A DNA stretch of 64,000 bases from Candidatus Poribacteria bacterium (GCA_965208325.1 OZ242326.1:2016001-2080000); one strand, 5' to 3'. Positions 16,066 to 20,354 are shown, numbered from the stretch's first letter. The notes: generated from the sequence alone by a model not told the origin. Made by a program: numbers and translations.

Positions 16066-18101
16066 TTCGGTTAAAGACACCGAGTTTTCAAATGAGGGTC
16101 GCGATTCGGAGATCGCTCTTGCGGCGCGCGGGTGGAATTGGAAGGATGGAAGATTGGATGGGATTCCGATTTTAGATGATGGGTTCGTATTGTTTAAAAA
16201 TTGGGTTAGGTTCAGCTCGGGATTAGGGACGGTGTTCGTAATTGGCAATCAATTCGGATGGGAGAGGTTTTAAAAGCGTTGGGTTTCGCTACAACCATCG
16301 GATTTTGTACACGGATAGATTGACGGGAGCGGTTGGTTTTACTGGGCGATTATTGGATGAACCCGCTCTACCCAACCTACAAAAACTTGTCCACAAACTA
16401 AGATTAGAAGAAACCGAGTTTTGAAGAAAAAACTCGGTTTCAAATAAAGTCCGCAATTTGGAGATCGCTCTTGCGGTGCGCGGGTGGAATTGGAAGGATG
16501 GAAGATTGGATGGGATTCCGATTTTAGAGGATGGGTTCGTATTGTTTAAAAATTGGGTTAGGTTCAGCGCGGGATTAGGGACGGTGTTCGTAATTGGCAA
16601 TCAATTCGGATGGGAGAGGTTTTAAAAGCGTTGGGTTTCGCTACAACCATCGGATTTTGTACACGGATAGATTGACGGGAGCGGTTGGTTTTACTGGGCG
16701 ATTATTGGATGAACCCGCTCTACCCAACCTACAAAAACTTGTCCACAAACTAAGATTAGAAGAAACCGAGTTTTGAAGAAAAAAACTCGGTTTAAAATAA
16801 ACGCCGCGATTCGGAGATCGCTCCTGCGGTGCGCGGGTGGAATCGGAAGGATGGAAGGTTGGAAGGGATTCCGATTTTCGAGGATGGGTTCGTATTGTTT
16901 AAAAATTGGGTTAGGTTCAGCGCGGGATTAGGGACGGTGTTCGTGATTGGCAATCAATTCGGATGGGAGAGGTTTTAAAAGCGTTGGGTTTCGCTACAAC
17001 CATCGGAATTTGTACACGGATAGATTGACGGGAGCGGTTGGTTTTACTGGGCGATTATTGGATGAACCCGCTCTACCCAACCTACAAAAACTTGTCCACA
17101 AACTAAGATTAGGAGAAACCGAGTTTTGAAGAAAAAACTCGGTTTCAAATAATAGCCGCGATTCGGAGATCGCTCTTGCGGTGCGCGGGTGGAATTGGAA
17201 GGATGGAAGATTGGAAGGGATTCCGATTTTCGATGACGGGTTCGTATTGTTTAAAAATTGGGTTAGGTTCAGCTCGGGATTAGGAACGGTGTTCGTGATT
17301 GGCAATCAATTCGGATGGGAGAGGTTTTAAAAGCGTTGGGTTTCGCTACAACCATCGAATCTTGTACACGGATAGATTGACGGGAGCGGTTGGTTTTAAT
17401 GGGCGATTATTGGATGAACCCGCTCTACCCAACCTACAAGAGCTTGTCCACGAACTAAGATTAGGAGAAACCGAGTTTTGAAGAAAAAACTCGGTTTCAA
17501 ATAAAGTCCGCAATTTGGAGATTGCTCCTGCGGTGCGCGGGTGGAATTGGAAGGATGGAAGAAAGGGAGCGCATGAACATTCGGTGTTGAAGGGTAGGTG
17601 GATTGCGTAAGTCTTACGCTTTAATGGCCAAGCATGATTGTTTAAAAATTGGGTTAGGTTCAGCTTGGGATTAGGGACGGTGTTCGTGATTCGCAATCAA
17701 TTCGGATGGGAGAGGTTTTAAAAGCGTTGGGTTTCGCTTCAACCATCGGCATTTGTACACGGATAGATTGACGGGAGCGGTTGGTTTTACTGGGCGATTA
17801 TTGGATGAACCCGCTCTACCCAACCTACAAAAACTTGTCCACAAACTAAGATTAGGAGAAACCGAGTTTTGAAGAAATAGTATCAAATGACCTGATGATA
17901 GTTGGAATGCGCGTGGTTACTGACTTCGAGCCATCATCAAATGAGCGAGTTATGTTGGCTTAATTAGCTTATCCGTCAAGAAATTCATTTGGTTTGGCTA
18001 GAAGCGTGACAAAGTATACCAAAATGGCTATGGCGTGCCAAGCCGATGCCAAAGAAAGAGACGTTGTTTTCCCATGTCTAAGCAATAATAGGCGTATGCT
18101 G

Positions 18102-18995
18102 TCATTGCAAGTCTCCTGTAGGTTTGGAACTGGACGGCACGGTGTTATCTTTGCCGTCTTCCAAGTTTGCGTTGATGTCATTCAGCGAATGTTGAGGAAT
18201 TAGGTCGAGATATTGAGAGATGACGCGCTTGGAAAGTTTGGTAATCTGAGAGATTTTGTCAATGTCATCGGTAGCGGTGCGAACAATCTTAACGGACTCA
18301 TAATCATGGATGTATCGGTCAACAGCTTCTTTGGAGTGCTTGGTTTTGGCAGCAATGGTCGGAGTCAGGTGCCCTTGTAGATAAAGGGTAATAATCTCCT
18401 TCTTGTGTGTAATTGCCGCCGATAAATCGTGAATGTTGCCGCGAGTGGGCAAGATTTTTCCACTGGTGCTTTGCCACTCGTTGACATACTCACTCACTAC
18501 TGGGTCGCGGACGTTGAGCAACACAGCCAGGTCTAGTTGAGTCAACAATGCCCCTTGGTCATAGGCTTGATAACACCATCGCACCAATCGATGAATTCTG
18601 AGTTCACGAGAGCTGAAGCCGCTGTAATAGTGTTCAATGTCCTCGGGGGCCACAAAGCTTAAAACCACAGGCTTCATGCGGGTTTTAACGATTGACTTGG
18701 CTCTCTGTGGATATTCGTCAATCGGCACAGCCATCCAAACCAGTTGACCATAGCTAAGCATTCGTTCATCAGGAAGTTGTTCTCCAGCGGCGAGTTTATC
18801 AAGTGGCAAGCGAATCAGGAAATAGTCTTCAATAGTTTTGACGATGTCATCGACAATGGCTTTGGCAGTCACTTCGCCTTTGTCATACCCATAGGAATTG
18901 ATAAAGCGATGAATCAGCAACTGCCGCAACGATTTATCATTGATACGTCTGATTTTCTTCTCGTTGATTTCGGTTCGAGTCAATGATTTACTCAT
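18102..18995 (-). CDS. DUF1670-like protein B
   Basis: AYDQGALLTQLDLAVLL, PTRG..HD, THK..II.LYL.G and HS..AV.RY motifs; ATGA overlap with upstream gene. Confidence 0.8.
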   Translation of the reverse strand: MSKSLTRTEINEKKIRRINDKSLRQLLIHRFINSYGYDKGEVTAKAIVDDIVKTIEDYFLIRLPLDKLAAGEQLPDERMLSYGQLVWMAVPIDEYPQRAKSIVKTRMKPVVLSFVAPEDIEHYYSGFSSRELRIHRLVRWCYQAYDQGALLTQLDLAVLLNVRDPVVSEYVNEWQSTSGKILPTRGNIHDLSAAITHKKEIITLYLQGHLTPTIAAKTKHSKEAVDRYIHDYESVKIVRTATDDIDKISQITKLSKRVISQYLDLIPQHSLNDINANLEDGKDNTVPSSSKPTGDLQ

Positions 18996-19792
18996 GAGTT
19001 TTCCCCCTTTTTTTCATCAACGGGTTCAGGATGAAGTAAAGTCGTCATTCGCTCTGTATGTTCGTATTTATCATACAGGGAGAGATACTCACGAATCAAT
19101 CGGTCAGAGAGATGGGTGATGAGCCGTATCTGTTCCTTTGGAAAGTCTTGATGATGGAGGGTTGCTACCTGAGTGAAATTACGCAAGTATCTCAACACGG
19201 CGCGTTCGGTGTGGTTCGTCTTTCGCTCAATGTCGGTGAATTGATAGCCTTTAAAGTACAGTTCTAGGATTTGGGTTTTATGAGAGATGCCGGGGCCCAT
19301 GTCGTGTTTGGCGCCGCGAGTCATTACAAAAAACCCTTGCTGTTTCAACTGTCGAATGTCTCGTTTGACGGTCGCCGGGCTGGTGGTTAATAGCACCGCT
19401 AAATCTTCATAGCTGAGCAAAGCGTCTTGGTCATAGGCTTGTTTGGTTAACCGTAAGATTCGATGTCGTCTGAGTCCTGCAAGTCCATAGTTGGCTAACA
19501 CCTCAAGATCGGTGTGCACATCATTGAGGGTGAGTTGGCAGGAGACCTTTTTGGCTAAGGCAATGTGTTTACCTGCGGGTTCGTCGGCGGCTACGGCTTC
19601 ATAGCAGATTTGGCCTGATGTGAGTTTAATATCGGCGTGTTGGGCAAAGTAGGAAGAAATCTGATTATAGTAGGCTTCGGCAAGGATAGGCATCAGATTG
19701 AAGTCTGACGCAATCTTCTGAATAATTGCCGCTCTCGCCGTCTTTGATTCCAGACGATTGATACCGTAGTTTGAATGACTTTGTGGTTTCAT
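18992..19792 (-). CDS. DUF1670-like protein A (paralog of B)
   Basis: AYDQDALLSYEDLAVLL..S..TV.RD (HTH-like), TRG..HD, SHK and HT..AV.RY; GGAGG RBS supports ATG at 19792. Confidence 0.8.
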   Translation of the reverse strand: MKPQSHSNYGINRLESKTARAAIIQKIASDFNLMPILAEAYYNQISSYFAQHADIKLTSGQICYEAVAADEPAGKHIALAKKVSCQLTLNDVHTDLEVLANYGLAGLRRHRILRLTKQAYDQDALLSYEDLAVLLTTSPATVKRDIRQLKQQGFFVMTRGAKHDMGPGISHKTQILELYFKGYQFTDIERKTNHTERAVLRYLRNFTQVATLHHQDFPKEQIRLITHLSDRLIREYLSLYDKYEHTERMTTLLHPEPVDEKKGENS

Positions 19793-19841
19793 AATGACCT
19801 CCATGGATTCATGGTAATTGATGGAAATAACATCTGTTATC

Positions 19842-19870
19842 AGTTTAACTCATGGGGTCATTTGATACAA
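19842..19870 (-). promoter_or_regulatory. Putative inward promoter overlapping the terminal inverted repeat
   Basis: Minus strand TTGTAT-N17-TAAACT about 50 nt upstream of gene A. Confidence 0.5.
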
Positions 19871-20354
19871 ACTATAAAAAACTCGGTTTCAAATAAAAGT
19901 CGCGATTCGGAGATCGCTCTTGCGGTGCGCGGGTGGAATTGGAAGGATGGAAGATTGGAAGGGATTCCGATTTTCGATGACGGGTTCGTATTGTTTAAAA
20001 ATTGGGTTAGGTTCAGCTTGGGATTAGGGACGGTGTTCGTGATTCGCAATCAATTCGGATGGGAGAGGTTTTAAAAGCGTTGGGTTTCGCTCCATTCATC
20101 GGATCTTGTACGCGGTTAGGTTGACGGGGAATTTGGTTTTCATGGACGGTTTTTGGATGTATCCGCTCTACCCAACCTACAGGAGTTGTGTTTAAGAAAC
20201 CGAGTTTGCAAGAAAAAAACTCGGTTTCAATTAACATTTTGCTCGGCTTCAGAGTTTCGGCAGGTGCAGTTGGGAGACTAAACCTACCGCAGTGCAAATA
20301 AATTACGAGCTTTGCAATGATTTGGCGGAAGTCCTTGTTCGGAAGGAACTATTC

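Follow-up and report, generated by a model that had tools for sequence, protein, structure and literature searches.

A 64,000-nucleotide stretch of the genome of a Candidatus Poribacteria bacterium (GCA_965208325.1 OZ242326.1:2016001-2080000; hereafter the window, with positions counted from its first letter) contains a recently active mobile element of 1,999 bp, whose only genes encode two mutually paralogous proteins of the DUF1670 family (Pfam entry PF07900), here termed open reading frame (ORF) A and ORF B. The element resembles an insertion sequence (IS): it has short terminal inverted repeats, duplicates an AA dinucleotide at its target, and inserts at specific sites of two kinds, the loop of a repeated hairpin and the last codon of genes encoding a sorting tail of the type IX secretion system (T9SS). 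We consider it probable that the element is an autonomous, target-specific IS and that the two DUF1670 paralogues are its transposition proteins. Set against the literature, Pfam, and NCBIfam (ISfinder lay outside this comparison), the sequence most likely represents an IS family not yet described.

A mobile element with inverted ends and an AA duplication

A reading of the window from its sequence alone, made before this analysis (the sequence-only reading), had claimed that an insert of about 2.0 kb splits a hairpin left intact in the neighboring units of a tandem array. The hairpin, gaaaccgagttttgaag-A6-ctcggtttc, is indeed whole in these units (for example, at 17118-17149 and 17470-17501), whereas at the insert it is broken after gaagAA into two parts, 17858-17877 and 19876-19890, ∼2.0 kb apart. 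The perfect 13-bp inverted repeat described in that reading, GTATCAAATGACC (17880-17892) and GGTCATTTGATAC (19856-19868), is also present, and the two paralogous DUF1670 genes are the sole content of the insert, as had been stated (Table 1).

A search of a species-genome collection found 247 relatives, of which we analyzed the best 80 loci. Full copies with readable flanks numbered 77, that is, 73 further copies and the 4 copies of the source genome. Ends of the ATAGTATCAAATGACC (left) and GGTCATTTGATACAAACTAT (right) type were both found in 74 of the 80 loci, with unit lengths of 1,895 to 2,027 bp; the boundaries defined by inverted repeats are thus shared by related DUF1670 loci, a point on which the sequence-only reading had called for a test. 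The left flanks read AA followed by the element's own A in 77/77 copies, and the right flanks start with AA in 76/77. The third A is attributed to the element since 35 of the 56 copies inserted at gene ends (see below) have AAG on the right but AAA on the left. The duplication consists of AA only, because at these gene ends the right flank keeps the original Lys codon and stop codon and the left junction is always AAA+TAG. The element had first been delimited as 17878..19875; its ends proved to be as well defined as claimed, but the limits are refined to 17877-19875, and instead of no duplication there is one of AA. The element thus shows two hallmarks of an IS, sharp ends that carry terminal inverted repeats and a duplicated target site.

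Table 1. Positions in the window of the element, its genes, its ends, and the repeats at its insertion site
Feature	Position	Strand	Basis
Mobile element, 1,999 bp, ATAGT...ACTAT	17877..19875	- (genes)	4 identical copies; identity ends at these bases; ends in 74/80 related loci
Left copy of the 2-bp target duplication (AA)	17875..17876	.	Flank comparison, 77 copies
Right copy of the 2-bp target duplication (AA)	19876..19877	.	Flank comparison, 77 copies
Left terminal inverted repeat, ATAGTATCAAATGACC	17877..17892	.	Sequence; repeat search; related loci
Right terminal inverted repeat, GGTCATTTGATACAAACTAT (corresponds to the left repeat plus 4 inserted bases)	19856..19875	.	Sequence; related loci
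Subterminal imperfect palindrome, 14-nt arms gatgatagttggaa / ttcgagccatcatc, within the left end	17894..17939	.	Comparison of 26 copies
ORF A, DUF1670, 270 aa from the first ATG; likely start at 19792 behind GGAGG, 266 aa	18992..19804	-	Pfam E 7.6e-64, 215.5 bits
ORF B, DUF1670 paralogue, 297 aa; ATG overlaps the ORF A stop (ATGA)	18102..18995	-	Pfam E 1.1e-59, 201.9 bits
Left half of the split target hairpin (gaaaccgagttttgaag)	17858..17874	.	Sequence; hairpin unsplit at the G002 orthologous site
Right arm of the split target hairpin (aaaactcggtttc)	19878..19890	.	Sequence comparison of copies
Tandem array, ∼352-bp units, each ending in a hairpin; one unit interrupted by the element	16086..20230	.	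TRF and sequence reading

Copies, empty site, and distribution

The source genome, a single contig of 4.7 Mb that is 95.6% complete, contains four copies matching a 1,998-bp query at 100% identity. All four are inserted into the hairpin described above, and their orientation with respect to its asymmetric loop does not vary; their flanks are unrelated past ∼20 bp on each side. As the genome has 73 intact hairpins (a reversed-pattern control gave none) among 4,089 A/T runs of at least 6 nucleotides, finding 4/4 copies in the hairpin is far from chance. At the orthologous site of a sister genome (G002:C1:3898540-3898740), both flanks are kept at 95 to 96% identity and the hairpin is intact, with no element in it. 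A clean empty site was not found for the gene-end targets; the closest candidate, in G013, differs in sequence downstream and probably represents a paralogue. With 4 copies in its own genome, 73 in relatives, and the empty site in G002, the insert is the IS-like mobile element that the sequence-only reading had taken it to be.

PF07900 is present in 9 of 41 related genomes, the source genome included, and the four identical copies together with this patchy distribution are what would be expected of an IS. Six other genomes with full-length PF07900 matches carry ORF A-ORF B pairs, five of them with 1 to 5 intact pairs; a further two genomes (G009 and G038) have PF07900 fragments only. Poribacteria is the title given for 79 of the best 80 loci in the species-genome collection, and a single assembly can hold as many as ∼16. 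For many clusters of homologues, near and distant, the longest contig is ∼2 kb, as for collapsed repeats, and sponge metagenome contigs aligned to the window have, at their loose ends, the same two kinds of flank. The family was also matched in Methanosarcina acetivorans, a control genome; tblastn against plasmids gave no match, and no relative was confirmed in viral contigs. In one genome (G006) with about four copies, every ORF B is broken by one in-frame TGA, which splits the matches near profile position 168; either an inactivating mutation common to all copies or recoding could account for it.

The ∼20-bp flank common to the four own copies on each side would also be explained if a larger element had the hairpin arms as its real termini and had left the 73 intact hairpins as excision scars or miniature derivatives, and a repeat search merges the 13-bp repeat and the hairpin arms into 41-nt arms (80% complementarity). 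We regard this as extremely improbable: the hairpin arms are ruled out as the true ends because the same ends recur without them in related genomes, where 62 of the 77 full copies lie at other sites with the same ATAGT/ACTAT ends and no hairpin arms. Moreover, genomes with 0 or 1 hairpin carry many copies, the orthologous site in G002 is a hairpin without the element, and the hairpin has a likely mover of its own, a gene like those of transposases associated with repeated extragenic palindromes (REPs; see below).

Two targets, a hairpin loop and the end of T9SS-tail genes

Sorted by site, the 77 full copies comprise 15 in the hairpin, 56 at gene ends (encoding ...[RK][KR]M..xK*), and 6 elsewhere. 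Hairpin insertions always have one orientation (15/77 copies). Gene-end insertions sit exactly in the last Lys codon of the target gene, and the element's genes are always convergent with it. The right flanks of the 56 gene ends read AAGTAA (19), AAATAG (14), AAGTAG (10), AAGTGA (6), AAATAA (5), or another sequence (2). The first four bases of the element, A+TAG, finish the Lys codon and provide a stop codon; as the last codon and stop are thus rebuilt, the host protein is unchanged. In addition, ∼20 bp of flanking target is specified.

Six target tails were sampled: FlgD_ig passes in 6/6, TIGR04183 in 5/6 (the sixth scores 21.9 against a cut-off of 23), and Pfam Por_Secre_tail (PF18962) in 3/6. 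Judged by these profile matches, the sampled tails are T9SS type A sorting domains. Kamke and colleagues are said to have reported such tails for Poribacteria in 2014. The source genome has 14 genes with an end of the ...[RK][KR]M..xK* type, and decayed left ends of the element lie behind several of them. Directly behind one T9SS-tail gene, outside the window at G000:C1:2139016-2139405 in the source genome, is a derivative of ∼390 bp that has lost internal sequence; its left end is perfect and its right end decayed, and it resembles a remnant of the kind known as miniature inverted-repeat transposable elements.

The sequence-only reading had suggested that the element targets this hairpin or A-tracts. 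The hairpin is a target (4/4 own copies, 15/77 overall), but of one sub-lineage, and A-tracts in general are not; the main target of the family is the last codon of T9SS-tail genes (56/77). In a weight matrix of 54 distinct gene-end flanks, the hairpin arms fall at the 42nd to 89th percentile of random GAAA sites, so that the two targets are unrelated beyond GAA|A.

At locus L204 (G018:C1:246227-249253, junction 247727-247753), a full copy abuts a decayed one, with AA between the right end of the former and the left end of the latter, so that insertion must have been repeated at the same gene end. A target that stays usable after insertion fits this single tandem junction among 151 genomes.

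Two paralogous proteins under selection

Both ORFs score above the gathering cut-off of DUF1670 (25 bits) and share 34% identity (E 2e-27); homologues of ORF A are mostly 266 amino acids (aa) long. Both ORFs are whole in 73 of the 77 copies, and the median ratio of nonsynonymous to synonymous substitution rates (dN/dS) in 45 pairs from ten diverse copies is 0.084 for ORF A and 0.103 for ORF B; by this measure, both are under strong purifying selection. A distant lineage from metagenomes (38% identity) has A and B in a unit of 1.68 kb. The unit has conserved ends that are its own, and its flanks are unrelated and showed no readable target duplication. Only 17 bp precede A and 25 bp follow B in this unit, and a 4-base overlap of start and stop codons is found in 12/13 loci. 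ORF A matches the ORF A of the distant lineage with 170 bits and its own ORF B with 95 bits, and ORF B is likewise closer to the distant ORF B; on these scores, A and B are ancient paralogues.

The DUF1670 family comprises 1,237 clusters at 50% identity (E ≤ 0.001) from bacteria and archaea. Fused forms exist, namely, A-B (∼545 aa), an extra module with A (∼520 aa), and an extra module with A-B (∼940 aa), and contain no other domain. Homologues bear the names "hypothetical protein," "biotin operon repressor," "DUF1670 domain-containing protein," and, once, "transposase" in their sources, and a full-text literature search returned no paper with "DUF1670" or "PF07900."

The AlphaFold (AF2) model of ORF A, built from an 82-sequence alignment (pLDDT 89.9), begins with three helices and a beta hairpin; a long helix and a winged helix follow, and after a conserved linker come two more helix-turn-helix (HTH) units. 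The AF2 model of ORF B has the same architecture at a pLDDT of 67, and both are nearly all helical, with 2 to 4 short strands. Pfam gave weak matches of the HTH_23/HTH_29 kind in the proteins; PADLOC gave no match, PHROGs regulator-type HTH matches only, and the ESM Atlas low-scoring HTH clusters only. A polar motif, R-G-x3-D-x5-[ST]-H-K ... H-[ST]-x5-R-Y, is common to A and B. R163 of ORF A is invariant, and G164, G170, H175, H198, and Y206 are kept in at least 90% of the sequences; R185, G186, H189, D190, T196, H197, K198, H220, R227, and Y228 are invariant in ORF B. Conservation of polar residues is strongest in the linker and the unit after it. From this conservation, we consider the shared motif a candidate active site or DNA-contact site.

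Which proteins move the element

The sequence-only reading had noted no DDE, HUH, or serine recombinase signature and had supposed that DUF1670 pairs are the mobility machinery. The first point held in Pfam and NCBIfam searches of both proteins. As to the second, the DUF1670 proteins may well do the cutting and joining, but their models look like pure DNA-binding arrays. Indeed, several results weigh against our proposal. No catalytic domain was found, as Pfam gave DUF1670 and weak HTH families only for both proteins, and no NCBIfam transposase model passes, the best being an IS1 model with 15.5 bits against a cut-off of 100. A profile search of PDB sequences gave six weak matches (E 0.043 to 0.5), mostly to chains of transcription regulators or transcription factors. 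With the ORF A model, Foldseek found nothing in the PDB at E ≤ 0.001, and a Foldseek-independent (VIA) search had its best Z at 6.8, for single winged-helix and TrpR/Mor-like domains and residues 100 to 259 only; residues 1 to 100 were barely probed by these searches. We saw no transposition intermediate: assembled contigs gave no circle junction, and the right-end-AA-left-end junction occurs in 1 of 151 genomes, where the second end is a remnant. Moreover, the hairpin arm and the gene-end target have no resemblance apart from GAA|A, which requires a change of specificity within one protein set, and the link between ORF B and target (see below) comes from one clade and one mosaic copy and is confounded with the hairpin content of the hosts.

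Two further candidates for evidence were considered and rejected. Contig joints across the element, taken as possible traces of excision, have sides of 20 to 21 letters that fit other hairpin copies, and contigs from an RNA library over parts of the genes, taken as possible transcripts, differ by 4 to 8%.

Our tentative suggestion for the chemistry, which we rate as possible though somewhat doubtful, is that DUF1670 pairs form a new class of transposase or recombinase built entirely of HTH modules, with an active site in the R-G-x3-D...[ST]-H-K...H motif and target choice in an exchangeable winged helix of ORF B. Proteins that look, in their predicted structures, like pure DNA-binding arrays without a known catalytic fold would also suit a division of labor in which A and B recognize the ends and the target and recruit a host enzyme, such as a Xer-type recombinase, a topoisomerase, or a repair nuclease, which may do the breaking and joining instead. 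The helper would have to be near-universal, because the family reaches archaea (M. acetivorans), and these three kinds of enzyme are near-universal. We nevertheless find such a division of labor unlikely. We know of no precedent for an element with terminal inverted repeats and a target-site duplication that multiplied to 16 copies on a borrowed enzyme, and the ends are, in our own reading, unlike the dif site as we know it. Furthermore, the polar motif common to A and B, with R163 invariant and D, H, and K nearly so, exceeds the needs of a plain linker.

A conventional transposase encoded elsewhere could also act in trans on a nonautonomous element, the DUF1670 pair being cargo, for example, a pair of regulators. 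The element has no catalytic domain match, and its ends can persist without the genes, since deletion derivatives and solo ends exist. A search of the source genome, however, gave no match to DDE_3 (PF13358), Resolvase (PF00239), or the IS110 DEDD domain (PF01548), and the sole matches among four transposase families searched genome-wide were two Y1_Tnp genes, both outside the element and one of them beside the hairpin repeat. The end motif occurs there only in the four copies and their remnants. We also surveyed 86 neighboring ORFs, on the nontarget side of all copies and on both sides of the hairpin copies and those classified as elsewhere; no Pfam family occurs in more than 7 of them, and no transposase or recombinase is among the 25 commonest families listed. 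The sequence-only reading had named two findings that would tell against it, namely, ends belonging to another, known IS and a conventional transposase constantly beside DUF1670 loci; no other element of the genome has these ends, and the 25 commonest neighbor families speak against the second. Finally, two lineages that are 38% identical keep A and B as the sole content between conserved ends, and both ORFs are intact in 73/77 copies, with a dN/dS of ∼0.1. We therefore judge a transposase acting in trans to be improbable, more so than a recruited host enzyme.

Target choice co-varies with element lineage and a segment of ORF B

Copies in the hairpin come from hairpin-rich genomes (73 hairpins in the source genome, 46 in G044, and 421 in G045), and three genomes with gene-end copies hold 1, 0, and 0. 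A FastTree phylogeny of the 77 units places the 15 hairpin copies, without exception, in a single clade (18 rows; local support, 100); the other rows of this clade are two copies inserted elsewhere and one gene-end copy, L038. Fixed differences between hairpin and gene-end copies number 20 in ORF B, at 11 of which L038 carries the gene-end state (residues 122-135, 163-169, and 193), and 8 in ORF A, at none of which it does so. L038 is a mosaic: nucleotides ∼1190-1400, in ORF B, are 84 to 87% identical to the gene-end types versus 80 to 81% to the hairpin types, and the remainder is 79 to 81% identical to the gene-end types and 90 to 91% to the hairpin types. In the ORF B model, the segment linked to the target covers the start of the long helix and the winged helix, including its recognition helix. 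Taken together, the one clade and the one recombinant provide a lead that ORF B residues ∼105-195 may select the target.

We found no recurrent shared or complementary 9-mer between the interior of the element and its target, and Rfam gave one sub-threshold, snoRNA-like match only. At the level of 9-mers, this lack of complementarity makes an RNA guide less likely. As the two targets are dissimilar and no internal stretch is complementary to either, the switch of target is most simply explained by a change in protein.

Comparison with known mobile elements

To our knowledge, all IS families move by DDE, DEDD, HUH, serine, or tyrosine enzymes. The element falls outside each family compared here because the catalytic domain that defines the family is missing. 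Members of the IS630/Tc1-mariner group have short terminal inverted repeats, a duplicated TA dinucleotide, a small size, a DDE domain, and one protein. The element is similar in its short inverted repeats, fixed 2-bp duplication, small size, and modules of the HTH_23/HTH_29 kind (weak matches), but its proteins have no match to a DDE (RNase H-like) domain, being fully covered by DUF1670 and almost all helical. It further differs in having two paralogous proteins instead of one, in a genome without a DDE_3 match, and in duplicating AA (76/77 copies) instead of TA, with ∼20 bp of flanking target specified; because the dinucleotide is AA and not TA, insertion is oriented.

Site-specific integrating elements of the kind that restores the 3' terminus of the gene they enter, and likewise Tn7 (attTn7), rely on tyrosine or serine integrases or on TnsABCD and use one site per genome. 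The element shares with them a safe haven, in that A+TAG stands in for the Lys codon's third base and for the stop codon and leaves the host product intact, but it is a 2-kb, multicopy IS that uses a whole family of genes, those with T9SS tails.

Tobes and Pareja 2006 (PMC1525189) list, as ISs that target REPs, IS1397 and ISKpn1 (IS3), IS621, ISPpu9, ISPpu10, and ISPa11 (IS110), and members of IS4, IS5, and IS256. The five families with such members all have known transposases in that source (rve, Transposase_9/20, Transposase_11, and Transposase_mut; PMC1525189). As in these ISs, insertion is oriented and specific for a repeated extragenic palindrome, in 4/4 copies here versus 5/5 to 10/10 in the cases given there (PMC1525189); unlike them, the element has none of their known transposases in a Pfam and NCBIfam search of A and B. 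It differs from the IS110 members, which mostly lack inverted repeats, by having them, and from IS110/IS1111 in general by the absence of a DEDD match (PF01548/PF02371) in A or B and of PF01548 in the genome. The bridge RNA of IS110 has no counterpart in a 9-mer pairing with the target or in an Rfam match above threshold, and the distant lineage is almost without noncoding DNA. IS200/IS605 and the REP-associated tyrosine transposases have an HUH Y1 enzyme and neither inverted repeats nor a duplication, whereas the element has both inverted repeats and an AA duplication and no Y1_Tnp in A or B. IS607 and other serine recombinase elements differ by PF00239, which is found neither in A or B nor in the genome. 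Finally, IS3 members (IS1397 and ISKpn1) encode OrfAB with rve; here there is no rve match, and ORF B, which overlaps ORF A by ATGA, again encodes a DUF1670 protein. A literature search on ISs with T9SS tails, REP-targeting ISs, and Poribacteria transposases turned up no description of the element.

Proposed mechanism and implications

We propose that ORF A and ORF B would be made together through the overlapping ATGA and would act as a hetero-oligomer of HTH modules. We infer that A and B bind one another as well as the ends and the target, and that the cutting and joining of DNA is their own work. Some modules would hold both terminal inverted repeats and perhaps also the subterminal palindrome (17894-17939), and the central winged helix of ORF B would read the target. 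The element would be joined into the AA dinucleotide with a 2-base stagger, leaving AA duplicated, in a single orientation; a fixed orientation is possible since AA is nonpalindromic and reading of the flank is one-sided. Two safe targets are used, the REP-like hairpin loop and, in genes that end in a T9SS sorting tail, the final Lys codon. The chemistry would be that of a cryptic active site in DUF1670 or of a recruited host enzyme.

An active, widespread IS that has none of the known enzymes and appears to encode only two paralogous arrays of DNA-binding modules would hide either a new chemistry of DNA cleavage and joining or a way of multiplying on borrowed enzymes, and both would be new to transposon biology. 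Its avoidance of harm is unusually neat, with insertion in hairpin loops or in a last codon that is rebuilt along with the stop. The mosaic copy points to a 90-residue segment that possibly sets the target, a modularity that is wanted for tools of site-specific integration. If DUF1670 pairs are a new enzyme class, they would offer a compact two-protein (∼280 aa each) system for oriented, sequence-specific, and re-aimable insertion, with more than 1,200 protein clusters in bacteria and archaea to draw on. For annotation, the element gives DUF1670 a first functional context and accounts for many orphan contigs of 2 kb in sponge metagenomes.

The tandem array, the hairpin repeat, and other features

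TRF delimited the regular part of the array at 16086-17562 (period 352, 4.2 clean copies, 95% matches); the units after 17562, identified by reading the sequence, are less regular. The units are noncoding, and pieces of them (the hairpin, gcgattcggagatcgc, and cccaacctaca) recur genome-wide as modular repeats. The copy number of the hairpin is very uneven among Poribacteria genomes, with 73, 46, and 421 in G000 (the source genome), G044, and G045 and 1, 0, and 0 in G041 to G043. In the source genome, a gene for a 188-aa Y1 (HUH) transposase (L203:1294-1906, ∼G000:C1:3321737-3322349) is located outside the window, with 15 bp between it and an intact hairpin and ∼95 bp between it and a half arm. 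Among NCBIfam models, it matches the REP-associated tyrosine transposases only, with 74.4 bits against a cut-off of 80. Because a gene of this type adjoins the hairpin, the hairpin is likely to have its own mover and is probably a REP/REPIN family. At the locus of one copy of the element (L002), the hairpin and ∼100 bp are absent from the sister genomes G001 and G003, which have ∼50 other bases instead; being missing in both, the hairpin-bearing unit there is a separate insertion/deletion polymorphism.

Within the left end of the element, the subterminal palindrome occupies the same position in 26 diverse copies, and its inner stem shows compensating changes between lineages. Its DNA-fold z score is below -2 in 13/26 copies (median, -1.8); RNAalifold gave no consensus fold for the left end and did not call the palindrome. 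Promoters and terminators in the region show no excess over shuffles. One promoter-like site, TTGGCA-17-TATACT with TG (18013-18041, minus strand), lies in the noncoding left part of the element and points outwards, in a region where the count of such sites is at chance level. An unrelated dispersed repeat, GAGGATCAACTGACCGAATAGGGAAGGCGATAG, often found after ccccctccttac, occurs at many sites of the source genome (for example, C1:623066, 640068, and 1600219).

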